NCBI GenBank assembly: GCA_035936835.1
Contig: DASYVT010000215.1
Span: forward strand, 27,394 to 91,393
Direction of reading: 5' to 3'
Source of the DNA: Candidatus Methylomirabilota bacterium
GTDB lineage: Bacteria; Methylomirabilota; Methylomirabilia; Rokubacteriales; CSP1-6
Length of the DNA: 64,000 bases
This document shows, piece after piece, positions 11,899 to 26,074 of the stretch (position 1 is its first letter; each line of letters opens with the position of its first letter). The notes under the pieces are model-generated. The model was not told where the DNA came from. It made no database searches and saw nothing but the letters and a program-made list of their open reading frames with translations. The translations under genes were made by a program, and so were the position numbers.

Positions 11899-11907
11899 GC
11901 TCGAGGG

Positions 11908-12215
11908 GCTACCGGCGCCGGGGCCGGCGGGGCTTCCGGTCCGCTTCCAAACTCGAGGTGCGCGTCTCCAGCGCCGAGATCCAGCCCGCGAGGCGGTTCA
12001 ATCGCCTTGCCTCGTGGTCGAATCGCCGGTCCACCGATTCCCAATACCGAGCCATGAGCACAGCAACTCCTCGGAGCTCAGCACGAAGTGATTCGCCGAC
12101 CTCATCGATGTGACGGCAGAATTCGGCGGTCGACTCGTCGATCATGTCGCCGTTAGTGTGTACCAATTCGGGGTCCACGGCCCAAGTCTCGCCGCGCTCC
12201 CGCACCTTGTCAATG
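11908..12215 (-). repeat. Repeat family copy 1 (about 310 bp, roughly 85% identical to 18176-18486). It carries the body of a 116 aa ORF.
   Basis: Aligned by eye to copy 2. The ends are near-identical, including a 46 bp core GGGGTCCACGGCCCAAGTCTCGCCGCGCTCCCGCACCTTGTCAATG, and the middle is more diverged. Confidence 0.65.
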
Positions 12216-12259
12216 TCCCAATAGGGCTCTCGAGGAAGCTGGGGCCGCGGCGGTTCCAA
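11909..12259 (-). CDS. Hypothetical protein encoded by repeat family copy 1 (116 aa, unknown function)
   Basis: Intact ORF MEPPRPQLPREPYWDIDKVRERGETWAVDPELV...LETRTSSLEADRKPRRPRRR. Its stop lies 10 nt upstream of the XDH-family gene start. Paralogous copies were translated at 18.2-18.5 kb and 25.8-25.9 kb. Confidence 0.45.
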   Translation of the reverse strand: MEPPRPQLPREPYWDIDKVRERGETWAVDPELVHTNGDMIDESTAEFCRHIDEVGESLRAELRGVAVLMARYWESVDRRFDHEARRLNRLAGWISALETRTSSLEADRKPRRPRRR

Positions 12260-12360
12260 ACGTGGACATTTACGCCGGTGGAGCTACGCAGTAACTCCAC
12301 TGCATGCGCGCGATGCGAATTGGGCTGCGGAAGGCCAGACCGCGGTTCTCCTCAGCGGTT

Positions 12361-12390
12361 GACAATATACAATCATACTAGCATCATAGG
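12361..12390 (+). promoter_or_regulatory. AT-rich putative sigma70-like promoter (TTGACA followed by TA-rich tract)
   Basis: TTGACAatatacaatcatacTAGCAT lies immediately upstream of the ATG at 12392. It is sharply AT-rich against a 70% GC background. Confidence 0.3.
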
Positions 12391-12391
12391 T

Positions 12392-12778
12392 ATGAGGGAA
12401 CCACGGCTCGTCACCGTCCTCTTGCGGCTCCTGCTCTTCTACAATTCGGGAGCCCGGGCCGGACGGGAGCCTATAGAGGATGAAAAGTTTATCCGAACCG
12501 CCGAAGAGATTGCCCAACAGTTCGGGGGTGGGACCCTCTTCGTGTTCCGCCGAGAAGACCCAAGAGGCTTCTGGTGGGATCGGGGCGTGGTGGACCGGGA
12601 TACCCTCGCCCTACTCGAGGTGGATGTTCCGGATACGGCCGGAGCGCGGGATTGGCTCCGTGGCTATGCGCGAGGTGTCCTTCTGAAGAGGTTCCGTCAG
12701 AAGGCTATCTACCTGAAGTTCATTGGACCCGTTGAGACGCTCCTGGTCACGGACGAAGAAATCGCGAGCGACTCTTAG
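12392..12778 (+). CDS. Hypothetical protein (129 aa)
   Basis: ORF MREPRLVTVLL...FVFRREDPRGFWWDRGVVDRD. No family was recognised. The start was chosen after the AT-rich promoter. Confidence 0.4.
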   Translation: MREPRLVTVLLRLLLFYNSGARAGREPIEDEKFIRTAEEIAQQFGGGTLFVFRREDPRGFWWDRGVVDRDTLALLEVDVPDTAGARDWLRGYARGVLLKRFRQKAIYLKFIGPVETLLVTDEEIASDS

Positions 12779-12791
12779 GGAGGAGACGACC

Positions 12792-12989
12792 ATGGCTCGG
12801 GAGAGAAAACTGGAAGCCCCAGTCACGCTATTCGCGGCGATCGAGACGAAGCAGCATCAGGCCCTGCGGGAAATCGCCTTCGAGCAGCGCCGCTCCATCG
12901 CCGATGTTGTCCGCGAGGCCATCAGCCAATACGTCGCCAAGCGCCCGGCAAGAACGAGTCGGCGGCGGTTGGTCGCGGGCCGGCGGTAA
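12792..12989 (+). CDS. Ribbon-helix-helix (CopG/Arc/MetJ-like) protein
   Basis: 65 aa, MARERKLEAPVTLFAAIETKQHQALREIAFEQRRSIADVVREAISQYV, with an RHH pattern. A GGGAGGAG RBS sits 6 nt upstream. Confidence 0.6.
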   Translation: MARERKLEAPVTLFAAIETKQHQALREIAFEQRRSIADVVREAISQYVAKRPARTSRRRLVAGRR

Positions 12990-13000
12990 AGGGAGCGGGT

Positions 13001-14161
13001 TTAGGTGCTCGCCGACAGCTTGTAGAGACGGGCGCAGTTGTCCCAGAGGATCTTGGCCTTGCTCTTGTCGCTGACGCCCTCGATCCGGACGAACTCCTCG
13101 ATGGCCACCGGGAAGAGCCCGTCGGAGTGCGGGTAGTCGGTCGAGACCACGATGTTGTCGTCGCCGATCGCCTCCACCACCTGGCGGAGCGGTTTCTCAT
13201 CGGCGTCGGTGGCGATATAGCACTGGCGAAAGAAGTACCGGCTCGGCAGCTGTGAGATCTGGATCTCCGAGCCCGGCCCGAACTTCTCCCAGGCCTCGTC
13301 GAGCCGCCAGAGGTACCACGGAAGCCAGCCGCACGTGCCCTCGAGGAACGCACAGCGGAGCCCCGGGTGGCGCTCGAGCACGCCGCCGGCGGCCATGCTC
13401 CCGAACGCCATCATCAGCTCGATCGGGTTGCGCCCGGCGACGCCGATGACCCGGCCGTTCGGGGTGTCGAGGTACCGGCGGGCAATGTCGTCCCTCAACG
13501 ATGACTGTCCCGTCGGGTGGAAGCCCACGGGCACGCCGAGCTCCTCGATCGCGTGCCACAGCGGCTCGAATGCGGGATCGTGGACGTGGCGGCCGTTGAT
13601 CGGGTTCGGGTTGCCGATCACCGCAACGGCGCCCAGCTCACGCACGGCTCGCTTGGCCTCGGCAATCGCGCCCGGGATGTCGTGGAAAGCCAGCTGGGCG
13701 GCGAACTTGAGCCGGCTCGGGTCGATCGAGCAGAAATCGCGCGTCCAGTTGTTGTGCGCGCGCGCCAGGGCGGCCGCCACCTGCGGGTCGAGATCATCGT
13801 GCATCAGGACCTGACGGCCGCGCGTGCCGTAAATAACGGCGACGTCGATGCCCTCGATATCCATCGCCTGGAGATGGGTCGGCGCGTCGTAGCCGCGAGC
13901 GTGCGCCACCGCGTAGTGCGGATGGCGGGCGAAGGAGCGCTCCTGGAGGCTCTTGCCAACCACTGCCGTCCGCGCGCGCTTCGACATCTCGGCGATCTCG
14001 ACGTCGCCGATCCGGATGACCGGCTGGTTCACCGATCCCTCGGCGGACCGCATGAAGCGGGGCGCGAATTTCTTGAACGGCTCGTCCAGGTACTGCTCCC
14101 AGAGGCCGTCCGGCTCCATCGTGTGCAGATCGCTATCCAGGACCCGGAATCCGTTCTTCAT
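13001..14161 (-). CDS. Amidohydrolase 2 family protein (ACMSD-like TIM-barrel metal-dependent hydrolase)
   Basis: 386 aa from MKNGFRVLDSDLHTMEP with a C-terminal STDYPHSD motif. The ORF-track 1002 aa extension is antisense to the adjacent real gene and was discarded. Confidence 0.8.
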   Translation of the reverse strand: MKNGFRVLDSDLHTMEPDGLWEQYLDEPFKKFAPRFMRSAEGSVNQPVIRIGDVEIAEMSKRARTAVVGKSLQERSFARHPHYAVAHARGYDAPTHLQAMDIEGIDVAVIYGTRGRQVLMHDDLDPQVAAALARAHNNWTRDFCSIDPSRLKFAAQLAFHDIPGAIAEAKRAVRELGAVAVIGNPNPINGRHVHDPAFEPLWHAIEELGVPVGFHPTGQSSLRDDIARRYLDTPNGRVIGVAGRNPIELMMAFGSMAAGGVLERHPGLRCAFLEGTCGWLPWYLWRLDEAWEKFGPGSEIQISQLPSRYFFRQCYIATDADEKPLRQVVEAIGDDNIVVSTDYPHSDGLFPVAIEEFVRIEGVSDKSKAKILWDNCARLYKLSAST

Positions 14162-14218
14162 GGCGGAGAGCTTAGTCTGGCGGGCCGGAGACGTCAAGGA
14201 CGGTGCTAGAATCCGCCC

Positions 14219-15598
14219 ATGCCCGACCGCACCCTGAAAATCGAGAACGCGCAGTACGTCCTGACGCTCGATGGGGAGCGCCGAATCATCCGCGACGCCT
14301 CGATCCTCGTGGAGGACGGCCGGATCACGCGCGTTGCCAAGGCGGCCGAGCTTGCCGCGGTCCGTGCTGACCGCGTGATCGACGCGAAGCGCCGGCTCGT
14401 CACGCCGGGCTTCGTCAACGGCCACATGCACATCAGCTACGCGCACGCCGTGCGCGGAATCTTCCCCGACGAGCTGGCGAGCCCGCTCGTCCACGTGTTT
14501 GCCCTGCAGGGCGCCATGACCGAGGAAGAGGAGTACCTCACAACCTTGCTCGGCCTCGTCGAGCTGCTGAAGAACGGCACGGTCTGCTTCGTGGATCCGG
14601 GCAGCACGAAGTTCCCCGACGCGTGCCTGCAGGCCTACGAGGACTCCGGCATCCGGGTGATGCTGGGCGAGTGCGTCACCGACGGGGACGCCCCGTTCAA
14701 GGTGCCGCGCTACGCCACCCACGAGGCTATCGCCCGGACGGCGGGGTTCATCGAGAAATGGCACGGCCGCCTGCAAGGCCGCGTGCGGGCCTGGGCGATG
14801 CCCTTCTCGCCGGAGACGTGCAGCGCCGAGCTGTTGCAGGCGCTCAAGCGCATGGTGGACGAGCGCGGCACTTCCCTGACGCTCCACCACAACAGCGGAC
14901 CCAAGGCGCGCCAGGAATACGCCGCCCGCCATGGCCTCCGACCGACCGAATACCTCGAATCCCTCGGCGTCCTCGGACCGAACGTGCTCCTCGCCCACGT
15001 GCTCGGGATAGACAACGCCGAGATCGACTGCCTGGCCCGTACGCGAACCGGCGTGGTGATGTGCCCCGTCACTTCCGCGAAGAGCGGCCGCGGCGTGCCC
15101 GAGCACGGCCGGATGCCGGAGCTGCTGGCGAAAGGTGTCAAGGTGGCCCTCGGCTGCGACTCGCCGAACAACTCCAACCATCTTGACATGGTCCGGACCA
15201 TGAACATGGCGGCGATCCAGTACAAAGACGCCCGCCAGGACACGCGCCAGATTCCCGCTGAATCCGCGCTGGAGATGGCCACGCTGCTCGGCGCGCAGGC
15301 TCTCGGCGTCGGCGACCAGCAGGGCTCCATCGAGCCCGGCAAGCGGGCGGACCTGGTGCTGTTCGACACCGAGCGGCCGGAGTGGCAGGCGCTCTTCAAT
15401 CCCGTCAACAACCTCGTCTATAACGCCGACGGGCGCAGCGTGCACACGGTCGTCGTGGACGGTCGCGTCGTCGTGGAGGACCACCGTCAGTCGTTCGTCG
15501 ACGAGGGCCGGCTTTTTGGCAAGGTGCAGGAGATCGGAGAGCGGCTCCAGGCCAGGACCGGCATCACGTTCCCCCGCTCGCGCTGGCCGATCGTCTGA
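14219..15598 (+). CDS. Amidohydrolase family protein (chlorohydrolase/aminohydrolase, SsnA/TRZ-ATZ-like)
   Basis: HxH metal motif (GFVNGHMHISYAH) and a C-terminal D in GCDSPNNSNHLD. Confidence 0.8.
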   Translation: MPDRTLKIENAQYVLTLDGERRIIRDASILVEDGRITRVAKAAELAAVRADRVIDAKRRLVTPGFVNGHMHISYAHAVRGIFPDELASPLVHVFALQGAMTEEEEYLTTLLGLVELLKNGTVCFVDPGSTKFPDACLQAYEDSGIRVMLGECVTDGDAPFKVPRYATHEAIARTAGFIEKWHGRLQGRVRAWAMPFSPETCSAELLQALKRMVDERGTSLTLHHNSGPKARQEYAARHGLRPTEYLESLGVLGPNVLLAHVLGIDNAEIDCLARTRTGVVMCPVTSAKSGRGVPEHGRMPELLAKGVKVALGCDSPNNSNHLDMVRTMNMAAIQYKDARQDTRQIPAESALEMATLLGAQALGVGDQQGSIEPGKRADLVLFDTERPEWQALFNPVNNLVYNADGRSVHTVVVDGRVVVEDHRQSFVDEGRLFGKVQEIGERLQARTGITFPRSRWPIV

Positions 15599-16069
15599 AT
15601 GACCGAGCGCGAGGCGTTGACGGCCCTGCGCGGCGACGATGTCGCCCAGGCGGCGCGCGCGGCCGGCGTCCTCTGGGAGATGTGGCACCGCTCCGGCGAA
15701 CCGCGGCTCGACGGGCTCCTGCAGGAAGGTATCGAGGCGATGGAGCGCCAGGACCTGCCCACCGCCGACGCGATGTTCACGCGGTTGATCGACGAGGCGC
15801 CGGCCTTCGCCGAAGGCTGGAACAAGCGCGCCACCGTTCGCTACATGGCCGACGACTACGCGGCGTCGATCGCGGACTGCCGGGAGACGCTCGCGCGCAA
15901 TCCCAACCACTTCGGCGCGCTCTCCGGCCAGGGGCTCTGCCACCTCATGCTGGGCCAGTTCCACGAGGCCGCGGAGCTCTTCCGCCGGACGCTCGCCGTG
16001 CACCCGCATCTCGGCAGCGCGCGCGACAATCTCCGGACAGCCCTAGCCGAAATCGTGAAGCTGAACTAA
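15599..16069 (+). CDS. Tetratricopeptide repeat protein
   Basis: TPR-like repeats (AFAEGWNKRATVRYMADDYAASIADCRETLARNPNH). The start overlaps the previous stop (TGAATG). Confidence 0.6.
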   Translation: MTEREALTALRGDDVAQAARAAGVLWEMWHRSGEPRLDGLLQEGIEAMERQDLPTADAMFTRLIDEAPAFAEGWNKRATVRYMADDYAASIADCRETLARNPNHFGALSGQGLCHLMLGQFHEAAELFRRTLAVHPHLGSARDNLRTALAEIVKLN

Positions 16070-16083
16070 GAGGAGGCCACGCG

Positions 16084-16470
16084 ATGAACAGGCGCATCCA
16101 GGTGCTCGCCACGATGGTGGTCGTCCTTCTCACATTCCCTATGGAGGTTCGAGCCGCCGACGTGCCCGCGCCTTACATTTCCGGCGGAGCCGGCGCGGAC
16201 TCGCGAGAAGAGCTCCTTGCCAAGGAGAAGGAATACAACCTCAAGGTCATCACCGCCGACAAATCCGGCGACTACCTGGCGGGCGTGAAGGTCGTGATCG
16301 AGTCGGCCAAGAAGGAGCAGGTCCTCGACGCCACGATGACGGGACCGATTCTCCTGGCCAAGCTGGTTCCCGGGACGTACACCATCAGGGCCACCTCTGG
16401 CGGTCAGACGCTCACCCGGACAGTGACCATCGCGGCGCAGGGGCTGCGGCAGGTGGACCTTCGCTGGTAG
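16084..16470 (+). CDS. Secreted hypothetical protein (signal peptide, all-beta CarboxypepD_reg-like)
   Basis: The signal peptide is MNRRIQVLATMVVVLLTFPMEVRA, preceded by a GAGGAGG RBS. Confidence 0.5.
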   Translation: MNRRIQVLATMVVVLLTFPMEVRAADVPAPYISGGAGADSREELLAKEKEYNLKVITADKSGDYLAGVKVVIESAKKEQVLDATMTGPILLAKLVPGTYTIRATSGGQTLTRTVTIAAQGLRQVDLRW

Positions 16471-16473
16471 GAC

Positions 16474-18084
16474 TCAGCCGCGCTTTTTCCGGGCGCGGAG
16501 GTCGATGGAGCCGGGCCGTTGGCGCGGGTCTTCGCCCGGAGGGAAAATCTGGGTCTTCTGCACTTTCTGGGTGCCGGTGGTGGGCAGGCGATCGACGAAG
16601 AGGACCCAGCCCGGGGCCTTGAAGTAGGCGAGCCGGCCGAGACACCAGTCGGCGAGCTCGCCCGCCAGCCGCGCGTCGGCCACCGAGCCCGGCATGGCGA
16701 CGACACAGGCCATGACCTCCTCCTCGCGGATCTCGTCGGGCACGGCGACCACGGCCACCTGGGCCACGGCCTCGTGGGCCTGGAGACAGGCCTCCACCTC
16801 CGCCGCCGCGATGTTCTCGCCTGAACGTCGGATGATGTTCTTCTTGCGGTCGACGAAGTAGAGCATGCCGCTCGCGTCCCGGCGCACCGCATCGCCCGTG
16901 TGGAACCAGCCCCCGCGCCACGCGTCTTCCGTCGCCTCCGCGTTCTTGAGATACCCGGCGAAGAATCCGTGCCGGGCGCCTTCCGGCCCGCCCCAGCGGA
17001 CAACAAGCTCGCCCTGCGTCTCGGCGGGCAGCTCCCGGTCCTGCTCGTCGACGACGCGCGCCTCGAGCCCACCGTGGGGCCGGCCGAACGCGCGCGTGTG
17101 GATTTCGCGCGGCTCGAAGCGATCGGCCAGGATGCGGCCGGTCTCGGTCATGCCCCACACTTCCACGAGAGGGAAGCCGAAGCGCTTTTCGAAGGGCTCA
17201 TGGAGCTGGGGCTCGACGCCGGCGCCGAGACCGAACTTGATGCGATGCTCGCGGTCTTCAGGCGCGGGCTCCTGGTTGAGGAGAAGCGGGGGCATCACGC
17301 CCAGATAGTGGATGATCGTGGCGCGCGAGGCGGCCACGTCGGGCCACCAGCGGCGGGGGCTGAAGCGCTCGGACAGGATCAAGCAGTTGGCCGTAAGCAT
17401 GGCGCACGTGGCCGTGACGGCCATGCAGTTCATGTGGAAGAGCGGCAGCGGATTCAGAAAGCGCTCGCGCCCGCGCTCAATGGCGAGGCGCCCGCCCAGG
17501 TCTCGGTACCAGGCCCCGGCGTTGAGGTAGTAGAGGTTGCTGAGGATGCAGCCCTTTGGCCGCCCCGTGGTGCCCGAGGTATAGAGGAGGGCGCACTCGG
17601 TGTCGAGCCCCGGCGCGCCGTCGCGCGGCGCCGGGCCCGCCTTGGGGAACGACGCGGGCAGCGCCTCGGCGTCGACCACCGGCAGCGGCTTCGCGCGCTC
17701 GCGCGCCACCGCCTCTAGAGAGCCCACGCGAGCCGGGATCGTCACCGCCAGCTCCGCCCCGGAATGATCCATCTGGTAGAGGAGCTCGTCATGCCGATAG
17801 TCGGGATTGATGGGCACCACGCCGGCGCCGAGGGCATTCAGGGCCAGGTAGTGAAAGAAAAACTCCGGCCGGTTCTCGAAGAGGAGGCCCACGCGATGGC
17901 CGTGGCCATACCCGGCGGCCGCGTAGCGCTCGCGCAGTGCCAGCGCCTCGGCGCGCACCTGCGCGTAGGTGTACTCGACGCCCTCCGGATGGTAGGCGCG
18001 ACCGGGGGAAGCTGGCGCGCAGAGGAAGGAATGATCGGGCGCGGCCTTCGCCGTGGCCACGAAAGCGTCGAAGACCGTGTCCAT
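16474..18084 (-). CDS. AMP-dependent synthetase/ligase (acyl-CoA synthetase, ANL superfamily)
   Basis: Motifs YTSGTTGRPKG and GWFHTGD. Confidence 0.85.
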   Translation of the reverse strand: MDTVFDAFVATAKAAPDHSFLCAPASPGRAYHPEGVEYTYAQVRAEALALRERYAAAGYGHGHRVGLLFENRPEFFFHYLALNALGAGVVPINPDYRHDELLYQMDHSGAELAVTIPARVGSLEAVARERAKPLPVVDAEALPASFPKAGPAPRDGAPGLDTECALLYTSGTTGRPKGCILSNLYYLNAGAWYRDLGGRLAIERGRERFLNPLPLFHMNCMAVTATCAMLTANCLILSERFSPRRWWPDVAASRATIIHYLGVMPPLLLNQEPAPEDREHRIKFGLGAGVEPQLHEPFEKRFGFPLVEVWGMTETGRILADRFEPREIHTRAFGRPHGGLEARVVDEQDRELPAETQGELVVRWGGPEGARHGFFAGYLKNAEATEDAWRGGWFHTGDAVRRDASGMLYFVDRKKNIIRRSGENIAAAEVEACLQAHEAVAQVAVVAVPDEIREEEVMACVVAMPGSVADARLAGELADWCLGRLAYFKAPGWVLFVDRLPTTGTQKVQKTQIFPPGEDPRQRPGSIDLRARKKRG

Positions 18085-18092
18085 ACCTCTAC

Positions 18093-18146
18093 CCTCTCCT
18101 CATCCCTCTCCCCCGTCGAGGGGGAGAGGGCAGGGTGAGGGGGCCT
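18093..18146. repeat. G-rich palindromic unit (REP-like) in the 5'UTR of the acyl-CoA synthetase gene
   Basis: CCCTCTCCCCCgtcgaGGGGGAGAGGGCAGGGTGAGGGGG. On the minus strand it is followed by tandem GGAGAGGG motifs ahead of the ATG. Confidence 0.5.
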
Positions 18147-18175
18147 GCCAAGCTGCCGACATCCACCGCCCTAGG

Positions 18176-18486
18176 CTACCGAGGCCGGCGGGTCCGGCGA
18201 GGCTTCCGATCGTCTTCCAGGCTCGAGGTGCGCGTCTCGAGCGTCGAGATCCAGCCATCGAGGCGGTCCAATCGCCTCGCCTGCTGGTCGAACCGCCGGT
18301 CCAACGATTCCCCATAACGAGCAATGAGAACGGCAAGGCCGCGGACGTCCGCACGAAGCGGCTCGCCAACCTCATCGATATGGCGGCATGTTTCGGCATT
18401 CTACGCGGCTATGTCGTCGCAAACGTGGGCGACCAACGCGGGGTCCACTGCCCAAGTCTCGCCGCGCTCCCGCACCTTGTCAATGC
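18176..18486 (-). pseudogene. Repeat family copy 2. The paralog of the 116 aa ORF is interrupted by an in-frame TAG (TCG to TAG relative to copy 1).
   Basis: Minus-strand translation gives ...RIDKVRERGETWAVDPALVAHVCDDIAA*NAETCRHIDEVGEPLRADVRGLAVLIARYGESLDRRFDQQARRLDRLDGWISTLETRTSSLEDDRKPRRTRRPR*. Confidence 0.55.
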
Positions 18487-18535
18487 GGCTCGCCCCCTCA
18501 CCCTGCCCTCTCCCCCGATGGGGGAGAGGGAAGCC
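18487..18535. repeat. G-rich palindromic unit (REP-like)
   Basis: CCCCCTCACCCTGCCCTCTCCCCCgatGGGGGAGAGGG lies directly abutting the 46 bp repeat core. Confidence 0.5.
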
Positions 18536-18583
18536 CTGCTCGATGGGCCAATCGCAGAGCTCCACGAGCGGATTCCGCGACAT

Positions 18584-18592
18584 GTTAGAATC
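18584..18592 (+). promoter_or_regulatory. Putative extended -10 promoter element for hicB (TGtTAGAAT)
   Basis: TGTTAGAAT lies about 34 nt upstream of the hicB ATG. An AAGGAGG RBS follows. Confidence 0.3.
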
Positions 18593-18625
18593 TCCTAGAG
18601 CAAGGATCACAAGGAGGTCCAATCC

Positions 18626-18880
18626 ATGGGTGGGCCGGCGGTCTTGCAGTACCAGGTCGCATTCACGCGCGATCCGGAGACTGCAAGCGTGGTAGCGGAG
18701 ATTGCAGCGCTTCAGATCGCTGACTTCGGGGTAGACGTCCCGGAGGCGTTGGATCGCTTGCAATCTATGGCGACCTTCCACCTCGATTGCCTGATTCAAG
18801 AGGGCAAGCCAGTTCCCACCGAAGAAAGGGAGGAAGCGGGGTTCTACCTTCGCGTCAAGCTTCCTCCCCATGCCGCTTAG
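18626..18880 (+). CDS. hicB: HicB family antitoxin (UPF0150 N-terminal domain)
   Basis: 84 aa, [56 protein letters not shown], matching the HicB-like fold pattern. Confidence 0.7.
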
Positions 18881-19085
18881 GCCCCTCAGAGCCCGGGAAA
18901 TCATCCGAAAACTTGAACGGGCGGGTTTTGTGTACCGCCGGCAGAGCGGCAGCCACACCAGATACGTTCATCCAGACGGCCGTGGAGTCACTGTCCCGAT
19001 GCATCCCGGCGACGTTCCCGTTCCAGTCCTGCGCTCGATCCTTCGTCAGGCCGGCCTGAGCGTCGAGAACTGGGAAACCCTGTAA
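18870..19085 (+). CDS. hicA: HicA family toxin (YcfA-like mRNA interferase)
   Basis: 71 aa with [37 protein letters not shown]. It overlaps hicB by 11 nt. Confidence 0.75.
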
Positions 19086-19095
19086 GCGCGACCAA

Positions 19096-19180
19096 CCGGA
19101 GTCCCTCTCCCCCGCCGAGGGGGAGAGGGACTCCCCCAGTACCCTCGCCCCCGAAGGGGGAGAGGGCAGGGTGAGGGGGC
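19096..19180. repeat. Two tandem G-rich palindromic units (REP-like) in a convergent intergenic region, a possible bidirectional terminator
   Basis: GTCCCTCTCCCCCgccgaGGGGGAGAGGGAC and CCCTCGCCCCCgaaGGGGGAGAGGGCAGGGTGAGGGGG lie between the hicA 3' end and the Gfo/Idh/MocA 3' end. Confidence 0.5.
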
Positions 19181-19181
19181 T

Positions 19182-20369
19182 CTAGTCCGCCAGATACGGC
19201 GCCAGGTCCACGCGCCGCCCCTCCGCGGCCGAGAGGTACGCGCCGTAGATGACCGCGATCACGTCGCGGGCCAGCGCGGCGCCCGAGAGCGGCTCGCGGC
19301 CGTGCGCGATGGCCTCCACGAAGTCCTGAATTTCTTGAGGATAGCCGGACATCCAGTCCTCGTCGGGCTGGGGCGCGCTCCAGCCCGCCTTGGTCTCGAG
19401 CTTCTCGACGAGATACTCGTCGCCGAACACGGCCGCGTCGGGCGCATAGGCCTGGACCGCGTCGTTCGGATTGATATTGCACAAGACGACGGCGCGCGCC
19501 GCGTACACGGCCAACTGGTTCCGGATGCCGCCCAGCACGGTGTCGCCGCCTGTGATCTGCGCCACGGTGCCGTCGTCAAACGTGAGGAGCAGCGTGCCCC
19601 AGTCCTCCACGTCCGCGCCGGCCACAGTATTAAGGAAGGGCCGCCCAGCCGCCGTGAACACGTCCGTCTCCGTGAGCTGGGCGGTCTCGGCCATGACGGC
19701 GCGCGGGCGCACGGGCCGGCCGCGGAGCCGGCGACCTTCGTCGGCCTTGAGGTAGAGCGCGGCGCCGAGCGGATGGCATCCCTTGCCGATGAGCGAGCCG
19801 CCCCCGCCCGTCTCCCAGCGCTTGTTGATGGGCGCGTGCGTCCCGCCATGGCTTTCCTCGCCGACGATCCGAAGAATGGGACCCCCCGCGGCGGTGAGCA
19901 GGCGCCGCGCCCGCTGGATGGGCGGGGCGTAGACCCAGTTCTCCGCGTAGCAGAGCCGGACGCCTGCCTGACGGCAGGCGGCGAGGATCTCGTCACTGGC
20001 AGCGAGGGCGCGGCGGAGCATCTCCGCGCGCGGGGTCGCGGCCGGGGCGAAGCAGCCCGTGAGCGGCTTCTCGACGATCACGTGCTTGCCGGCCCGTGCC
20101 GCCGCAATGGCCAGCGGCGCGTGGAGCGACGTCGGCACGCAGAGGTCGACTACGTCCACGTCGGGCGCGGCGAGCACCTCTTCGGCGCTGGCCGCAACCG
20201 TGGTGACGCCAAACTCCTCGGCGAACCGCGCGGCCCGCTCCGGCCGGGCTGCCGCGACCCGCGTGAGCGCCACGTCCACGCCGCGGACCTGATGATAGGC
20301 CTCGGCGTGCAGACGCGCGGAGAAACCGGCGCCGATGAATCCAACACGAAGCGTCCTAGGCTCGTCCAC
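19182..20369 (-). CDS. Gfo/Idh/MocA family NAD(P)-dependent oxidoreductase
   Basis: Rossmann N-terminus LRVGFIGAGFSARLHAEAY. The GTG start is 6 nt after the DUF2075 stop, so it looks co-transcribed. Confidence 0.8.
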   Translation of the reverse strand: MDEPRTLRVGFIGAGFSARLHAEAYHQVRGVDVALTRVAAARPERAARFAEEFGVTTVAASAEEVLAAPDVDVVDLCVPTSLHAPLAIAAARAGKHVIVEKPLTGCFAPAATPRAEMLRRALAASDEILAACRQAGVRLCYAENWVYAPPIQRARRLLTAAGGPILRIVGEESHGGTHAPINKRWETGGGGSLIGKGCHPLGAALYLKADEGRRLRGRPVRPRAVMAETAQLTETDVFTAAGRPFLNTVAGADVEDWGTLLLTFDDGTVAQITGGDTVLGGIRNQLAVYAARAVVLCNINPNDAVQAYAPDAAVFGDEYLVEKLETKAGWSAPQPDEDWMSGYPQEIQDFVEAIAHGREPLSGAALARDVIAVIYGAYLSAAEGRRVDLAPYLAD

Positions 20370-20375
20370 GGCCTA

Positions 20376-22439
20376 TTAGATCAGGGACATCCCGGAGCGG
20401 CTAAGATAGTCGAACGTCTGGTCGTAGTAGACGGGATCCCTCGTTGGATCCTCGCTATCGCCCCACGGCACGACCACCACCATGCCCTGCCGAGCCCGGG
20501 TCAGTAGGACCCGATAAGCATTCTTCAGGTACCTCTTCCTCTCATTCGCAAGGATGCGCTGCCAGCCGTTGCCGCGAAATGACCAGTGCTGCCAGCCTTC
20601 GGGCGTGAAGCGGAAATCCGCATCCCACACCACGCAAGCCCAGTCCAGCTCCAGGCCCTGGATATGGAATTCGGTGGCGACGTCTTCCAGATAGTAGGAC
20701 GAGCGAACATCGTCCTTGCCGTCGAGGAACCAGTGCACGGGATTGACGGGAGTCTTGACGTCCAGCGCATGCGGTTTCAAGCGTTCAGCCTGAGAGGATA
20801 CCACGATGCCGTACCGTTCTGAACCCCGAGCCTTGCCGCGGAGCCATTTCCGGGCCTTGTTCAGGTCCCGGGTCAGCGCGATCGGGTAGCGCTCCTGCAC
20901 GTGCCGGAGGGTCTCGCGGGCCGCACCGAGCTCCAGGTCCAGAAGCTCCTTGACCAACTTCGACACGTTCTCGCTCCGAAACGATCGAATCGACGTGGCT
21001 AGGTGAAGATCCGATTTGAACTCCACGTGCGCCCGGTGTCGCAGGGCTTCGACGATCGGACCTGCTCCGTACTCGCTATCTACGAGTCGGTCGGACACGT
21101 AGATCCTCCAGTCCGGATAGGATTGATCCAGCGCATTCAGCCACTCGCTGATCCCTGCCTCGCCGGTATTTATCTCCTGACCGCCCCCCACGAGACAGAT
21201 GACCACCGCCCAGTCCTCGTGCCGGTCGAGGCAGGAGATCAGGAACTCGGGTTCGGACTGGTTGAAGTTCGGACGGCCCTTCTTGCGCTTCATGAAGTCG
21301 CCCGTCTGTTTCAGGGTCCAGGCACGCTGGGCTTCGTCAAAAATAGCGACGTGTTCGATCGGAGGCTTCTCCGCGTCGACGAGGCATTCGTCCCGAAAGT
21401 GATGGACGTTCTGGACGAATGCGCGGACCTCGCTCAACGCCGTGCCCTTGCGTACGACCCGGCCCCGGAGCCGCTCCTGACGGACCTTGTCCCGGGCTAG
21501 GGCCTCCTGCAGGATCTCCACAAGGGGCCCGTTGCCCGACAGGAACACACTGTAGAGCTCATCTCGATGGTCGATGTGCTTCGTGGCCGCGTCAAGGCCG
21601 ACCAGTGTCTTGCCCGCTCCGGGGACGCCGGTCACGAAGCAGATGGCCTTCTGCGAGCGAGCCTTCGTCGCCGCGATGATAGAGGCGACGGTGCCCGCAG
21701 TCTTGCTGAGATTGGTGGCGCCTGCGTCACTCCGTGAGATCTCGCTGACCGAATGCCCACGATAGAGCGCCAACGTCGCTTCGATAATCGTTGGTGTGGG
21801 CTTGTAGCCGCTCTCCTCCCATTGTTCGATCCGGATTTCCGGCGACCCAACGAGACTCAGGATTCCCTCGATGGCCGCCGCCAAGCCATCGGAGTTCGTC
21901 CGCGCCGCCTCGAACAAACGATCCGAGGGGCGCGTGTCCGGAATACGCTGATGATCTCGACGGGCCCGCGTGCAGATCAGCACGGGGGCGATGTATGCGT
22001 CGTGGCTGCCTTCATGGAAGTTGTGGAGATCCAGGGCGTAGTCTACGACCTGATCTACGTCCTGGGACGAAAAGGCTTGTTCCCCGACCTTGAACTCGAG
22101 GACGAAGATAACCGGTCCGATGATGACAAGCGCATCGATTCGGCGACCCATGCGGGGAATGGTGAACTCTAGGTAGAGCGCGCCTTGACGGCCCGCCAGA
22201 ACGCGCTTGAGGATTTCGGCCTGCTCGAGCCATGCGTCCCGCTGGGTTCCCGTCAGGTCGAAATCGTTCCGCCGCGCCATTCGCGCAAAAATCTCGTTTA
22301 GGTCGGCCGCACAGAACTCCGTGATCGTGCCCGAGTAGTAGGACCGTTGTGCTGCCGCGCGAAGCGAAGAACTCTTCACGGAGGAGAAGTATAGTCTAGG
22401 GCGAGCGTCGTCGCGCATATCGAACCAGTTCTGCTTCAA
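20376..22439 (-). CDS. DUF2075 family protein: N-terminal PD-(D/E)xK-like nuclease domain plus SF1-helicase-like P-loop ATPase (Schlafen-like)
   Basis: A nuclease-like [20 protein letters not shown] block at the N-terminus, Walker A GVPGAGKT, Walker B-like [10 protein letters not shown], and a C-terminal [15 protein letters not shown]. Confidence 0.8.
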
Positions 22440-22493
22440 CTCGGCCTCGGTGAAGAACTGGAACGACCCCTCGCTGGTGGTCAGCCATCTGCT

Positions 22494-23414
22494 CTAGCCA
22501 CGGAACACCGTGTCGGCGTGCCATTCGAGCAGCTCGCGCCTGGGGCGCTCATCAGCCCCTCGCGGCACCCAGATGGTGCTGCCGTCTAGCTGATAGTAGT
22601 GCTCGCCGTTGTCGAAGTCCTTCTTGAGCCGGCGGCTGACACGGAACCGAAGGTCGGGCGCGATGGTCACGTACCCGCGATCGTAGAGCGTATGGACGTC
22701 GGAGCGGAGCAGTAACCCGTTGCTGACGCTGTGTGGTCCACCTTCGGCAACCGGCTGGATATGCGCGGCCTCAAGGACGGGCAAGGCCTTCTCGCGTGTC
22801 ACCGCGCACCGCCGCTCATACGTGTCGGTGACGAGCACGCGGAACGCACCCTGCCCCAGCCGCTGCCACACCGGGACGACTCGGCCCTGCACGGGCCCCT
22901 CAGGTTCGGCGCTAGCGGACGCTCGAGTGAAACGATAGCGCTCGAGCGCAGCTTCCCACAGCTGACGGCCCGTGCCTGATTCGAGATCGTATGTCTTGCC
23001 CTGGACAATGTTCCGGCTGAAATCAGCCGGGGCTGGGATCCAGTCACGCTCACGGAAGAAGAAGGGCTCTTGCAGGATGATGCAGCCGATCGTGTACTGC
23101 GCATGCGGACCCACGGGTGCCCGGCGATACTTGTCAATCCGCCGGCACATCTCGGGATACGAGGGCGCCCCGTTCTTCTGGTCGAACGCGTCCCAGGCAA
23201 TGCTGGCATCAAGCAGCGAGGCATGCGTGAAGAAGCCTCCGCCGGCAATGACGTTCTCTGGGTAGTGGAGCTTGAACAGGAAGGGTTCGCCGGGCTTGAG
23301 CGTTCCGAACAACCGGTTGCCGCCGGGCTGCCAAAAGTTCACCTCGTCCAGATCGGGGCGGTCCCGCAGGAAGCGGTACCAGTCCCGGTCCGTGACGGCA
23401 ACGTAAGCGCGCAC
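22494..23414 (-). CDS. HNH endonuclease (COG3440-like predicted restriction endonuclease) with an unassigned N-terminal domain of about 170 aa
   Basis: C-terminal HNH motif RCAVTREKALPVLEAAHIQPVAEGGPHSVSNGLLLRSDVHTLYDRGYVT. The N-terminus MRAYVAVTDRDWYRFL...NFWQP...FKLHYPENVIAGGGFF may be a PUA/EVE-like beta-barrel. Confidence 0.8.
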   Translation of the reverse strand: MRAYVAVTDRDWYRFLRDRPDLDEVNFWQPGGNRLFGTLKPGEPFLFKLHYPENVIAGGGFFTHASLLDASIAWDAFDQKNGAPSYPEMCRRIDKYRRAPVGPHAQYTIGCIILQEPFFFRERDWIPAPADFSRNIVQGKTYDLESGTGRQLWEAALERYRFTRASASAEPEGPVQGRVVPVWQRLGQGAFRVLVTDTYERRCAVTREKALPVLEAAHIQPVAEGGPHSVSNGLLLRSDVHTLYDRGYVTIAPDLRFRVSRRLKKDFDNGEHYYQLDGSTIWVPRGADERPRRELLEWHADTVFRG

Positions 23415-23433
23415 GGGCGGGAGTCTAGCAGAG

Positions 23434-23760
23434 TCAGGCTTGTTCCACGCTCTGCGCCGCCACCAGCACGGTCATGTTCAGGATGCGGTTCTGCTTGGCG
23501 CCCACCAGCTGCTCGCCGTCCAGGAGCAGCAGGGGCAGGTCCCCCAGGTTGGCCACCCGGAGGTCGGGCACGGAGCCCTCCTCGTCCACCTCCGTGATGC
23601 GTACGCGGTCCCCGGCCTCGGCCAGGGTGACCCACTCGGGCTCCGTCTGCATGGGCGCCAGGATTGGGATCACGGTCAGCGCGCCGTGGCGCTGGGGCTG
23701 GCCGGCCAGGATGCTGCCGAGGGTCTTCGCGATGATCTCGACGTCGGCGACTGTGGGCAT
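23434..23760 (-). CDS. Hypothetical small protein (108 aa), first gene of the HNH-DUF2075 operon
   Basis: MPTVADVEIIAKTLGS...DLPLLLLDGEQLVGAKQNRILNMTVL. An AGGAGG RBS sits 7 nt upstream. It ends 19 nt before the HNH gene. Confidence 0.5.
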   Translation of the reverse strand: MPTVADVEIIAKTLGSILAGQPQRHGALTVIPILAPMQTEPEWVTLAEAGDRVRITEVDEEGSVPDLRVANLGDLPLLLLDGEQLVGAKQNRILNMTVLVAAQSVEQA

Positions 23761-23829
23761 GTAGGGCCTCCTATTAGTAGAGGGCGCTGCGCGGTCTCTG
23801 GACCCGGACAGCCAGTGTGTATCCGTGCT

Positions 23830-23900
23830 GTGACAGGGAGGGTCACGGCCTGTGAGGGGACTTTTCGCTGCCGCCGGGTGGCTGTGACCCCGGCTGTCAC
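23830..23900. promoter_or_regulatory. Two GTGAC-N7-GTCAC palindromes in the 370 bp divergent intergenic region (putative operator sites)
   Basis: GTGACagggaggGTCAC and GTGACcccggctGTCAC lie about 54 bp apart, between the minus-strand operon start (23760) and the plus-strand DUF6883 start (24133). Confidence 0.3.
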
Positions 23901-24132
23901 GGCGGAGGCGGTAGGGAGACGGAAACGAAGCGAGGCAGGCCAGCTCGCCAACCGGCTCCTCAGTCTTTCGGAGAACGCTTCCCGGCCCGGCGAGTGGTCG
24001 TGAGTCTGCTGAGGCGGGTGTATCCAATTCGAGGCATTGGATCGCCACGGCTCGAGTGCTACAGGGAAGTACATCAGCGACGGTGCGAGGGACGCCAAGC
24101 GATGAAGTTGGTCAGGTACGAGGCTCGAGCGC

Positions 24133-24474
24133 ATGCAGATTCCGAATGCGGATCGTGCTGTCATCGACCCGGCGAAGCTTCATGGGTACTTGCTTTCACG
24201 CAACCATCCGGTCGGCCGGTTCAAGGCGGCATTCTTTCTGACACTCGGATACTCGCCGGAGGGCTGGCGCCAGCTCGAGGCGGACCTTCGGGGCCAGCAC
24301 CTGCCTCAGGATGCCGCGCGCGGGGAGGAGACGCGGTATGGGCAAAAATACGCGATCCGCGCTACACTGGTTGGGCCATCGGGGAGCTGGGCGGACGTGG
24401 TGAGCGTCTGGGTCGTGCGTACAGGCGAGGAGTTCCCTAGATTCCTGACTGCCTATCCGGAGGGCGGCAGATGA
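24133..24474 (+). CDS. DUF6883 domain protein (putative toxin-like component)
   Basis: C-terminal SWADVVSVWVVRTGEEFPRFLTAYP, characteristic of DUF6883. Confidence 0.7.
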   Translation: MQIPNADRAVIDPAKLHGYLLSRNHPVGRFKAAFFLTLGYSPEGWRQLEADLRGQHLPQDAARGEETRYGQKYAIRATLVGPSGSWADVVSVWVVRTGEEFPRFLTAYPEGGR

Positions 24475-24704
24475 GTTACCAGGTTCTCGATACCATCGTT
24501 CTCGATCGTGACCTACCTCAGCACGGGTTGCGCAAGGGCGATCTCGGCTCGGTGGTGGAAGTCTACGAGGCCGATGGGCTCGAGGTCGAGTTTGTAACCG
24601 CGTCCGGGCGAAGCGCGGCGCTGTTGACGCTGAACGACCGGGACGTGCGCCCGGTGTCAGATGACGACTTGGTATCTGTCAGACCCTGCCATCGCTCGGC
24701 TTGA
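24471..24704 (+). CDS. DUF4926 domain protein (putative antitoxin-like partner)
   Basis: MSYQVLDTIVLDRDLPQHGLRKGDLGSVVEVYEADGLEVEF pattern. Its start overlaps the DUF6883 gene by 4 nt. Confidence 0.7.
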   Translation: MSYQVLDTIVLDRDLPQHGLRKGDLGSVVEVYEADGLEVEFVTASGRSAALLTLNDRDVRPVSDDDLVSVRPCHRSA

Positions 24705-24742
24705 GCCGGCCGAGCCCTGGGCTTCCGGCAAAGGCGGCGGCC

Positions 24743-24970
24743 ATGGAATGCGTGATTTGTAAGCGCGGCGAGACCCGCCCGGGCATTGCTACGGTCACCG
24801 TAAAGCACGACTCCACGGTCTTGGTGATCAAGGGAGTTCCCGCCGACGTCTGCGCCAACTGCGGTGAAGAGTACGTCGGTGAAGCCACGACGGCGCACCT
24901 GTTGCGCACCGCTGAAGAGGTGTCGCGGGCGGGCGTTGAGGTAGACGTGCGCGAGTACGTGGGGCCGTGA
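24743..24970 (+). CDS. YgiT-type zinc finger protein (MqsA N-terminal-like zinc ribbon, no HTH)
   Basis: MECVICKRGETRPGIATVTVKHDSTVLVIKGVPADVCANCGEEYV, with CxxC...CxxC. Confidence 0.65.
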   Translation: MECVICKRGETRPGIATVTVKHDSTVLVIKGVPADVCANCGEEYVGEATTAHLLRTAEEVSRAGVEVDVREYVGP

Positions 24971-25040
24971 ATCTATAATTGCATTAGTTCTGCACTTGAC
25001 GCGCAAGGCCCGCCTGTTAGACTCTGCCAGTACTTCCTCC

Positions 25041-25084
25041 CCGTTCGATATGCCGAAAGGCCTCGGGCGGGGTTATTTTCTTCT
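25041..25084 (+). terminator. Weak putative intrinsic terminator: short GAAA-tetraloop hairpin followed by a T-rich run
   Basis: GCCgaaaGGCctcgggcggggTTATTTTCTTCT lies downstream of the YgiT-like gene. It is weak for a high-GC genome. Confidence 0.2.
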
Positions 25085-25162
25085 GACCGTGCCTCCCGCC
25101 AATACCCGCTGACCCTGCAATCGCTCGTTTCGCTCTTCTTCAGCGCAACCCTTGACCAGCAC

Positions 25163-25495
25163 TCAACCGCGCGCAACCGCATGGGGGGAATGGCGGCGTT
25201 GCCTACTCTTCCAATGCCGAAGCGTGCGCAGTGTCTTGAGGGTCTTCCCCACCTTCCCCTCGGCGAGACGCAGGTCGTAGAGGGTTTGCAGGTTGAGCCA
25301 GAACTCGGGGTTCGTGTGGAAGAAATGACCGAGGCGTAGCGCGGTATCGCCGGTAATGGCCCGCCGGCCATTGAGGATCCCGGTTACGCGATTGGTCGGC
25401 ACATTCAGCTGGCGTGCGAGCTCGGCAGCGCTCATGTGGAGCGCCTTCAGTTCTTCGGCGAGATGCTCGCCAGGGGGGATTGCCATGCGTGCCAT
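25163..25495 (-). CDS. higA: HigA family antitoxin (XRE-type HTH)
   Basis: PPGEHLAEELKALHMSAAELARQLNVPTNRVTGILNGRRAITGDTALRLGHFFHTNPEFWLNLQTLYDL. Confidence 0.75.
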   Translation of the reverse strand: MARMAIPPGEHLAEELKALHMSAAELARQLNVPTNRVTGILNGRRAITGDTALRLGHFFHTNPEFWLNLQTLYDLRLAEGKVGKTLKTLRTLRHWKSRQRRHSPHAVARG

Positions 25496-25505
25496 GTGTT
25501 TCTCC

Positions 25506-25790
25506 CTAGTGATAGTCCACGATTTCGACATTGACGGGCCCGGCCGAACCGTCTGGCCATTCGAAACATATCCGCCATTGGTCGTTGATGCGAATGCTGT
25601 ACTGGCCCTCTCGGTCGCCGCTCAGCGCCTCGAAACGGTTGCCCGGTAACCCAGCAACGTCCTTGAGTGCCGTAGCCGCCTCGAGACGGTCGAGCTTGAG
25701 CTGCGCGGACCGCTCAATCGCGGAGAACGCCTTGACTCGCCTGCCGGCGGCGAAGGCCCTGGTTCGTTTGTCTCGATACCCGAGGATCAC
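25506..25790 (-). CDS. higB: HigB family toxin (RelE-fold killer protein)
   Basis: GNRFEALSGDREGQYSIRINDQWRICFEWPDGSAGPVNVEIVDYH. It uses a GTG start. Confidence 0.8.
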   Translation of the reverse strand: MILGYRDKRTRAFAAGRRVKAFSAIERSAQLKLDRLEAATALKDVAGLPGNRFEALSGDREGQYSIRINDQWRICFEWPDGSAGPVNVEIVDYH

Positions 25791-25843
25791 CTCGAAGGGT
25801 ATCGAGGAGTACGCGTTACGTCAAGCGTAACTATCGGGAGCTT

Positions 25844-25889
25844 GGGGTCCACGGCCCAAGTTTCTCCGCGCTCCCGCGTCTCGTCAATG
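25844..25889 (-). repeat. Repeat family copy 3: a 46 bp core plus a remnant of the ORF N-terminus, just upstream of higB
   Basis: GGGGTCCACGGCCCAAGTTTCTCCGCGCTCCCGCGTCTCGTCAATG. Minus-strand translation gives PPRPQVYPRSDIDETRERGETWAVDPKL, which aligns with copy 1 PPRPQLPREPYWDIDKVRERGETWAVDPEL. Confidence 0.5.
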
Positions 25890-26074
25890 TCGCTGCGCGG
25901 ATACACCTGCGGCCGCGGCGTTCGGCAGGTCCTCTGCTGAGGAGGTTGTCCTCAACCGCCCTGCTACGAGCAGCGGCCCAAAAGAGCCGGACCTGCGCTC
26001 TGCGTGTTCGCTACAATTGGGCCCCTCCGCCGGCTGATCGTCAGGCCGCGAGGCGGGGACAAGGAGAGCCGACT

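Follow-up and report, generated by a model that had tools for sequence, protein, structure and literature searches.

Why do three nearly identical pieces of DNA stand, in one orientation, directly ahead of unrelated genes in a single bacterial contig? The question is raised by a stretch of 64,000 nucleotides (nt) from a Candidatus Methylomirabilota bacterium (GenBank assembly GCA_035936835.1, contig DASYVT010000215.1, positions 27,394 to 91,393), here called the window, in which a 46-nt core is found at exactly three sites, 12170-12215, 18440-18485 and 25844-25889. The original prediction described these sites as a co-oriented repeat family that encodes a protein of 116 amino acids (aa), aligned its translated N-termini as a peptide motif, and saw in it either a recombination scar or a portable leader-gene. 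The latter half of that proposal comes close to the evidence presented here, and the former half does not hold. With a probability of about 0.72, each copy is best read as a promoter plus a leaderless small gene that heads a transcription unit in a conserved catabolic cluster.

The repeat itself is not in doubt. The degenerate pattern given in the original prediction is matched without mismatch by copies 1 and 3 and with one mismatch by copy 2, the core does not occur once in 100 shuffled sequences, and a nucleotide profile built from 63 related cores returns just these three sites in the 64 kb, all of them on the minus strand. Beyond the core, copies 1 and 2 are 80% identical over 235 nt (11916-12150 versus 18186-18420), and from the core on their codons correspond one to one as far as the stop; the resemblance of copy 3 to copy 1 is limited to the core and about 40 nt upstream of it. 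The predicted anatomy of the individual copies was largely recovered as well (Table 1). The 116-aa open reading frame (ORF) of copy 1 is present and stops 10 nt before the XDH-family gene. Copy 2 carries an in-frame TAG at 18401-18403, codon 16 counted from its GTG, where copy 1 has TCG, and its original stop lies 91 nt (90 in the prediction) ahead of the AMP-binding acyl-CoA synthetase gene, with a palindrome that resembles repetitive extragenic palindromic (REP) sequences inserted in the gap. Another such palindrome takes the place of the sequence upstream of its -35 hexamer. The core of copy 2 is near-perfect (45/46) despite the interrupted ORF and the palindromes that abut it on both sides. 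Copy 3 is a core-only 5′ stub directly upstream of higBA, and it is drifting at bases that are invariant elsewhere (TTGACG, GAAACT).

Table 1. Positions in the window of the three repeat copies, their partner genes and the adjoining palindromes.
Feature	Positions	Strand	Basis or remark
Copy 1 partner, 772-aa XDH/CoxL-family gene	9580..11898	-	Ald_Xan_dh_C, MoCoBD_1, MoCoBD_2 (Pfam)
Copy 1 proposed true coding sequence, 89 aa	11909..12178	-	GTG 12176-12178, stop 11909-11911
Copy 1 mechanical 116-aa ORF, TTG start	11909..12259	-	first 27 codons correspond to the putative promoter block in frame
Copy 1 conserved non-coding block (putative promoter region)	12166..12232	-	nhmmer, 63-core profile, match 12226-12166, E=1.6e-19
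Copy 1 -10-like hexamer GAGACT	12185..12190	-	17 nt past the -35 hexamer
Copy 1 -35-like hexamer TTGACA	12208..12213	-	read and pattern match; 98-100% per base in the family
Copy 2 partner, AMP-binding enzyme (acyl-CoA synthetase family)	16474..18084	-	Pfam
REP-like palindrome between copy 2 stop and acyl-CoA synthetase start	18104..18149
Copy 2 small-gene pseudogene	18176..18448	-	otherwise colinear with copy 1; original stop 18176-18178
Copy 2 putative promoter block	18436..18485	-	TTGACA 18478-18483, GAGACT 18455-18460, GTG 18446-18448
REP-like palindrome abutting copy 2 -35 hexamer	18487..18530		inverted relative to 18120-18149
higB (25506-25790) and higA (25163-25531)	25163..25790	-	Pfam HigB-like_toxin, HTH_3; placed behind the copy 3 core, apparently by insertion
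Copy 3 remnant ORF from GTG, 21 codons (VDPKLPIVTLDVTRTPRYPSR)	25787..25852	-	TGA overlaps higB GTG start (GTGA)
Candidate promoter-like site of higB	25788..25830	-	TTGACG-17-TACCCT-5-GTG, read from the sequence
Copy 3 putative promoter block only	25840..25906	-	TTGACG 25882-25887, GAAACT 25859-25864, GTG 25850-25852

The reading rests first on the way in which the block upstream of the small gene is conserved. This block was compared in 72 distinct copies, 63 of which remained after near-duplicates had been removed, and its geometry was counted in 81 distinct blocks. As DNA it reads TTGACA, 17 nt, GAGACT, 6 nt and GTG, and the pattern TTGACR-N17-GARACT-N6-RTGGA matches copy 1 at 12174-12213. 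Conservation sets in abruptly 18 nt upstream of ATTGACA and continues base by base, third codon positions included, to the GTG of "AVDPE". Within the block the mean entropy is level across the three codon positions (0.51, 0.53 and 0.51 bits over the 63 non-redundant copies) and takes on a coding pattern right after the GTG (0.9, 0.7 and 1.2) and in the C-terminal tail (0.22, 0.22 and 0.96). In a genome of 68% GC, rare codons ending in A or T are fixed in the block: ATT in 63/63 copies against a background of 10%, ACT in 62/63 (6%) and TAT in 48/48 (23%). Free variation is confined to nine bases between two invariant boxes, and the spacer "codons" which they form change radically (V/A/M; R/W/G/K/P/stop; E/G/A/V). 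With this lack of codon periodicity, the fixed rare codons and the in-frame stops and frame shifts described below, the aligned N-termini (PPRPQ..DIDKVRERGETWAVDP) do not stand as a peptide motif, and the argument from synonymous differences that had been raised in their favour fails for the core, since the block varies equally at the three codon positions.

The anatomy of the block, in turn, is that of a promoter set against a start codon. The -35 hexamer is TTGACA in copies 1 and 2 and TTGACG in copy 3, with 98-100% conservation per base over the 63 copies. The spacer stays within 16-18 nt, being 17 nt long in 76/81 blocks and 18 nt in 5/81. The start codon is GTG in 77/81 and ATG in 4/81, and the distance from the -10 hexamer to it is 6 nt in 76, 7 nt in three and 5 nt in two, so that spacer and start distance combine as 17/6 in 74 blocks, 18/7 in three, 18/6 in two and 17/5 in two. 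Positions 2 and 6 of the -10 hexamer are invariably A and T, and homologues have CAGAGT, CAGTAT, TAGGAT or TAAAAT at this place. No GGAGG-like Shine-Dalgarno sequence was found between the -10 hexamer and the start codon; with neither a leader nor such a sequence there, the mRNA is probably leaderless.

Where the protein begins can be read from loci in which the upstream frame is broken. An in-frame stop codon lies upstream of the GTG in seven loci, and the block is frame-shifted in two others (L050 and L093). In three of the seven (L006, L007 and L085) the upstream part is out of frame owing to the 18/7 geometry, which turns the TGA within TTGACA into an in-frame stop. All nine keep an intact ORF of 101-174 codons from the GTG, with the canonical arginine-rich tail in eight; L050 ends in the variant ...NRKTPRQL. 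Divergent homologues point to the same codon, many of them being called with MDPE or VDPE as their first residues. Three of these distant loci (L099, L102 and L103) have TTGAC(A/C)-17-CAGAGT-6/7-(A/G)TG with spacer sequences that are unrelated, and the low-GC homologue L008 has TTGACA-16-TAAAAT-8-ATG, again with an unrelated spacer; in L101 just a TAGGAT hexamer stands 8 nt ahead of the ATG, with a poor -35 match. These comparisons place the start of the protein at the GTG (12176-12178 in copy 1), which gives a product of 89 aa reading VDPELVHTNG...DRKPRRPRRR, and the block ahead of it is very probably a promoter-type element, the "N-terminal motif" being this promoter read in frame. Gene callers extend the proteins of 66 homologous clusters upstream through the block (MYPxCDIDKVRERGETWAVDPE...), from upstream starts that are inconsistently ATG, GTG, TTG or CTG, and the database N-termini of the family are probably wrong.

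Several points weigh against a leaderless promoter. The -10 hexamer is weak, as GAGACT and GAAACT match TATAAT at only 3/6 positions where at least 4/6 would be expected of a consensus site, and a consensus promoter scan did not list the core, a failure that can be put down to this hexamer; the same scan did list a site at 12359-12387 on the opposite strand, which is AT-rich and unrelated. The block also contains more conserved bases than a promoter needs, namely CGCGGC before the -10 hexamer, which within the close family forms the conserved 3′ half of the spacer, and ATGTATCC upstream of the -35 hexamer, and a superimposed regulator site or something else may account for them. An in-frame ATG lies 18 nt upstream in about two-thirds of the copies, which fits translation from there. 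Most of the compared loci are close relatives, with enzymes 87-98% identical, so the 63 sequences are not independent and binomial figures for the rare codons overstate their significance. To our knowledge, leaderless use of GUG has not been demonstrated in this phylum, and no paper on leaderless translation in Rokubacteria was found in the literature.

Some of these points could be met by taking the block as a regulatory DNA site, for instance an operator of a cluster-specific regulator or a binding site of an alternative sigma factor; transcription would then begin at another place, and the GTG would serve as an internal start. Conservation indeed reaches past the hexamers, CGCGGC and a GTATCC located 11-13 nt upstream of the -35 hexamer being retained (the latter also in L006, L010 and L102), and the -10 hexamer is weak. 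An internal start, however, would have to do without a Shine-Dalgarno sequence in an organism that uses AAGGAG-type sites elsewhere, distant homologues of different sequence still place the start 5-8 nt after the -10 hexamer, and L008 shows a near-consensus TAAAAT at exactly the -10 place. This explanation is unlikely, and a regulator site superimposed on a promoter accommodates the same extra bases.

A somewhat poorer case can be made for translation of the block from an upstream start (ATG-TAT-CC...), with MYPxCDIDKVRERGETWAVDPE a real peptide motif whose nucleotides are frozen for a second reason, e.g., to keep mRNA structure low around the start, or because a regulator site overlaps them; it implies the existence of peptides such as DIDKVRERGETWAVDPE, or of ones covering DIDKVRERGETW. 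The ATG (in some copies GTG) that lies 18 nt upstream of ATTGACA coincides with the onset of conservation, the frame is open across the block in most copies, and gene callers annotate proteins from upstream starts. Against this, the subfamily of the window has no conserved upstream start (AILTAPRCD..., EPYWD...), the nine lineages with stops or frame shifts retain an intact ORF from the GTG, many homologues begin with MDPE, codon periodicity is absent, radical changes (A/P, R/W) occur inside the otherwise invariant "motif", and structure prediction gives this part low confidence in spite of its maximal conservation. Translation of the block is thus quite improbable, and promoter followed by GTG start remains the preferred reading. 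An RNA element was considered as well and rejected: Rfam 15 covariance models had no match at E <= 1 in 11700-12500, and folding of the three copies and of the 3′ junction gave z-scores of -2.14 to +2.23, no better than shuffles, with no structure common to the copies.

Downstream of the GTG, the small gene behaves as a protein-coding gene, and one that evolves fast. The codon-level comparison that the original prediction had proposed gives a ratio of nonsynonymous to synonymous substitution rates (dN/dS) of 0.29 between copies 1 and 2, with dS 0.53 and the third codon position most variable; over 11 pairs, this one and ten others, dN/dS ranges from 0.19 to 0.47. The substitution pattern indicates that the body of the gene is coding and under purifying selection. 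The suspicion of a real protein family that had escaped annotation proved right: 66 homologues, all "hypothetical" or without a name, are present in a collection clustered at 90%, and with a profile the number of cluster representatives found at E <= 0.001 is 772. Pfam has no match for the 116-aa ORF at E<=0.01 and none for the 89-aa form at E<=1, and NCBIfam, queried with the 89-aa form, a long member and two distant ones, returned nothing near its cut-offs. In Pfam, only sub-threshold matches of coiled-coil type are obtained for long and distant members, and a profile search of PDB brought up nothing beyond coiled-coil and apolipoprotein noise, with no relative among solved structures. The GTDB representative genomes lack the source genome, the best match having 40% identity, and genes of the window are present in Logan assemblies of SRR12277191, SRR12277199 and SRR12277200. 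The contigs that carry it are labelled, as deposited, as metagenome-assembled genomes of Rokuibacteriota, Methylomirabilota, Acidobacteriota/Vicinamibacteria and Deferrimicrobiaceae.

In the alignment, a variable middle of tandem helical repeats (ADLRGEIR..., ETRAYIDERxQTS...) is accompanied by a conserved RRHFDVVGESLR segment and by a conserved C-terminal tail, ...LEDDRKPRRPRRRR. AlphaFold2 predicts one helix over residues 30-107 of the 116-aa ORF with a predicted local distance difference test score (pLDDT) above 90. This helix begins directly after V28-D29, and the "motif" part ahead of it reaches a pLDDT of only 56-66 though it is the best-conserved. From the model, the protein is probably a single long helix with an arginine-rich tail, and probably a coiled coil. 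The product is 89 aa long in the window and up to about 200-220 aa in relatives, through tandem repeats of 11 to 22 residues. Lengths from 89 to about 220 aa occur between close relatives whose flanking enzymes are >90% identical, because whole tandem repeats vary; in L058, L059, L066, L079, L061 and others the middle differs by whole units, for example by one to seven copies of the 15-residue unit ETRAYIDERVGTSAA.

The genes that follow the copies were surveyed at the junctions of 94 related loci, where the stop codon of the small gene falls between -4 and +19 nt from the start of the next gene. Each partner has its own characteristic junction. A 396-aa GFO/IDH/MocA oxidoreductase gene overlaps the small gene by GTGA or follows it after 9 nt, a CoxL-type gene follows after 9 or 10 nt, an acyl-CoA synthetase gene after 8 nt, an Amidohydro_2 enzyme gene after 2 nt and the gene for a 130-aa protein after 16 or 19 nt, and a 156-aa TPR gene is convergent. 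These partners are located between 9.5 and 20.4 kb of the window, in which the 130-aa protein was not looked for; for those compared directly, identity to the counterparts in other loci is 87-95%, with the small gene at the same positions. The number of copies per locus is often two to four, and all 117 core matches in related loci are co-oriented with their neighbours. Because of these recurring partners, tiny fixed junctions and constant orientation, the copies appear to stand at the head of transcription units within a conserved cluster. The 10-nt gap between the copy 1 stop and the ATG of the CoxL-type gene contains no Shine-Dalgarno sequence, and a gap of 9-10 nt recurs at eight other CoxL loci; in five loci an intact small gene ends 8 nt before a synthetase gene homologous to the copy 2 partner. 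Termination-reinitiation coupling would fit the CoxL gap, since the organism uses AAGGAG-type sites elsewhere, as at 26055-26075 and 34800-34822.

Two further observations concern the surroundings of these genes. The GFO/IDH/MocA gene at 19182-20376 starts 6 nt after the stop of an SLFN-type helicase gene and has an N-terminus (MDEPRT...) unlike that of relatives, and in L012 and L072 about 3 kb lie between the helicase and this gene, with the promoter-small-gene module in both and, in L012, HpaB and an amidohydrolase besides; the lineage of the window seems to have deleted the stretch from helicase to oxidoreductase. A 64-nt direct repeat of 92% identity (34782-34845 and 43051-43114) in genes 8.3 kb apart spans the Shine-Dalgarno site (AAGGAG) and first codons (ATGAGCTCGATCTGGATGAAGCCG), probably as paralogous 5′ ends.

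The block persists in places where its small gene does not. Core-only stubs stand before the acyl-CoA synthetase gene in four loci and before higB in the window and in three others (L047, L058 and L079), the short ORF of a stub from its GTG stops on or beside the following start codon, and the GFO oxidoreductase gene of L037 and L040 runs on directly from the core and its GTG, as a fusion. As judged from these remnants, the promoter appears to outlive its ORF. The junction of copy 3 with higB is considered old, because it is common to at least three other lineages. The stub may by now be redundant, since higB seems to have a site of its own (Table 1); a 6-bp inverted repeat, GTTACG/CGTAAC, lies over the -35 hexamer of that site and appears as a hairpin in the RNA fold. 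By its sequence, higB too resembles a leaderless gene that has an operator.

When the small proteins are clustered by their C-terminal 72 residues, they group partly by partner gene, as in a synthetase-linked group and for many oxidoreductase-linked genes, and partly by genome, as in the short repeat-less subfamily of the window, which includes genes before CoxL, the GFO oxidoreductase, the 130-aa gene and the TPR gene, and in L030, whose two copies are 82% identical. Strict orthology by partner gene was considered and holds just partly, given the genome-wise clusters. The mixture would be explained by old paralogy with later gene conversion, homogenisation or replacement. Five loci (L019, L021, L022, L023 and L026) share an upstream toxin-like gene and have near-identical small genes, joined to four different downstream contexts; the end of that upstream gene, about 140 nt upstream of the core, is RelE/ParE-like by eye. 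This suggests that exchange at the module probably happens, or that units of toxin plus module were duplicated.

Whether the copies could be scars, that is, direct repeats resembling attachment sites and left by integration of the segments at 12.3-18.2 and 18.5-25.8 kb, has to be asked in view of their single orientation, the short third copy, the lower-GC inserts between copies, and the five loci just described, whose contexts suggest homologous exchange at the module. The original prediction had the copies bracket these segments as accessory DNA. The segments, however, hold the conserved partners (amidohydrolases, the TPR protein, the acyl-CoA synthetase and the GFO oxidoreductase) at 87-95% identity, relatives keep the small gene at the same partners, and other lineages have the junction with higB as well. 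Copies 1 and 2 are not identical duplications, since purifying selection has acted on them while they diverged (dS 0.53). No integrase, recombinase or transposase was found between or beside the copies in the annotated stretch, nor any transposase in 9-28 kb. As for an integron with attC sites, folds of the repeat were no better than shuffles (z = -0.96 to -2.14), and no integrase was present in the annotated stretch, the rest of the window not having been scanned for IntI. Lower GC is found at 12.0-13.0, 18.5-19.0 and 20.5-26.0 kb, which does not coincide with the repeat-to-repeat intervals. Origin of the repeats as scars is therefore very unlikely.

Still less credible is a non-autonomous mobile element of the MITE (miniature inverted-repeat transposable element) or REPIN type, or the end of an insertion sequence (IS), that carries the ORF by chance, for which speak the inverted REP-like pair around copy 2 (18120-18149 and 18487-18516, 93% complementary) and the presence of up to four copies per locus, but against which stand the absence of terminal inverted repeats and target-site duplications at the module ends, the lack of any match to the module in plasmid and phage collections, the conserved position relative to partner genes across relatives, and the palindromes themselves, which form a separate family that also flanks hicBA (19103-19180) and is absent from copies 1 and 3. 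The conditions under which the original prediction would have been given up, low-complexity chance similarity or an IS end, thus do not apply, no terminal repeats, target-site duplication or transposase having been found.

The palindromes and the lower-GC pieces are additions to the cluster in their own right. Only four REP-like palindromes occur in the 64 kb (18104-18149, 18487-18530, 19103-19130 and 19142-19180), with the sequence CCCTCTCCCCCG..GGGGGAGAGGG and a GGGTGAGGGGG tail, and they box in copy 2 and the hicBA pair. An insertion of the same kind, between small-gene stop and synthetase start, is found in L088, L090 and L092, and the same type of REP adjoins the module in eight loci. The lower-GC stretches contain the gene for a 128-aa protein with its ribbon-helix-helix (RHH) partner, hicBA, a defence set of ARPP-1, HNH and SLFN-helicase genes, and DUF6883, DUF4926, MqsA-like and higBA genes. 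From their content, these foreign pieces appear to be toxin-antitoxin pairs and a defence module inserted into the cluster. One lower-GC part is the island at 20376-25790, where the ARPP-1, HNH_2 and SLFN-g3 helicase genes, a defence-type trio also found in L012, lie together with DUF6883, DUF4926, an MqsA-like zinc-ribbon gene and higBA. At 12359-12989 on the plus strand, divergent from copy 1, an AT-rich TTGACA-17-CATCAT precedes the gene for the 128-aa protein, which has no known family and overlaps an RHH (CopG-like) gene; this low-GC pair, possibly toxin and antitoxin of an unclassified kind, recurs beside the module in L020 and L078.

Promoter reuse, leaderless first cistrons and translational coupling are all known kinds of organization, and the module is a variant of them. 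First, leaderless mRNAs in mycobacteria encode small proteins at transcript 5′ ends, and for translation there a 5′-terminal ATG or GTG is both required and enough (Shell et al., 2015; PMC4633059). The module resembles them in having a promoter-like block directly before ATG or GTG, no 5′ untranslated region, no Shine-Dalgarno sequence and a small ORF as first cistron. It differs in that one homologous promoter-ORF unit recurs up to four times per cluster, is conserved base for base across many genomes of another phylum, is annotated in databases as peptide, and is known from sequence alone. Second, highly similar upstream regions before non-homologous genes have been described as promoter reuse by putative mobile promoters (Nijveen, Matus-Garcia and van Passel, 2012; PMC3575422). 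The near-identical core likewise precedes non-homologous CoxL, acyl-CoA synthetase and higB genes in the window and, in relatives, also GFO oxidoreductase, Amidohydro_2 and 130-aa genes. Unlike such promoters, the reused unit normally includes a coding first cistron and has no IS or MITE vehicle, and its largely conserved partner relations look more like old paralogy with gene conversion than free mobility. Third, upstream ORFs can be translationally coupled to the next gene by termination-reinitiation at overlapping or closely spaced stop and start codons. The junctions here are of this sort, with GTGA, TGATG or ATGA overlaps or gaps of 2-10 nt, among them the CoxL gap without a Shine-Dalgarno sequence; unlike short regulatory leader peptides, the ORF has 90-200 codons and is conserved as protein (dN/dS 0.2-0.5), and coupling is what the junctions suggest. 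The protein, for its part, shares long helices and 11- or 22-residue repeats with Apolipoprotein (PF01442), YtxH and DUF1664, and some members have precomputed PF01442 matches; all these matches fall far below curated cut-offs (e.g., 22 bits versus 90), and it is not a member of that family.

In the preferred reading of promoter plus leaderless small gene, events would run as follows in the Rokuibacteriota-like bacteria of soil and groundwater that carry the cluster. The perfect -35 hexamer TTGACA, the 17-nt spacer and the weak -10 hexamer GAGACT would drive transcription from or beside the GTG, and ribosomes would start on the 5′-terminal GUG of an mRNA without leader. The product would begin with (f)M-D-P-E and end in the conserved tail, and the next gene would probably be translated by termination-reinitiation coupling, because the small-gene stop overlaps its start or precedes it by 2-19 nt. 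Copy 1, being intact, would serve the CoxL-type gene; copy 2 would keep a promoter before the acyl-CoA synthetase gene, its ORF broken by the TAG and boxed in by REP palindromes; copy 3 would be a promoter with four codons, left after a higBA cassette had landed behind it in an ancestor. A more ambitious version is doubtful, although it would make the module a new class of promoter-leader cassette organising a whole regulon. It supposes a dedicated, duplicable expression cassette in which the conserved promoter and a superimposed regulator site launch a leaderless coiled-coil ORF, translation of this ORF loads ribosomes onto catabolic genes that lack Shine-Dalgarno sequences, the invariant proline- and arginine-rich C-terminus (KPRRPRRRR-stop) acts in cis at termination to tune reinitiation, and the cassette reaches new genes of the same genome by gene conversion.

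For annotation, the consequence is a correction: more than 100 predicted proteins carry as their "most conserved N-terminal motif" what is very probably a promoter read in frame, and the true proteins would start with MDPE or VDPE and not at their annotated N-termini. The module also offers a comparative handle on promoter architecture, and on probable leaderless translation, in uncultured Rokuibacteriota-like bacteria, where stubs of the putative promoter persist after loss of the first cistron or insertion of a toxin-antitoxin cassette. Finally, an unnamed family of probable coiled-coil proteins that recurs as first cistron before different enzymes of one conserved cluster asks for an explanation, be it co-regulation, translational coupling or a role as scaffold.

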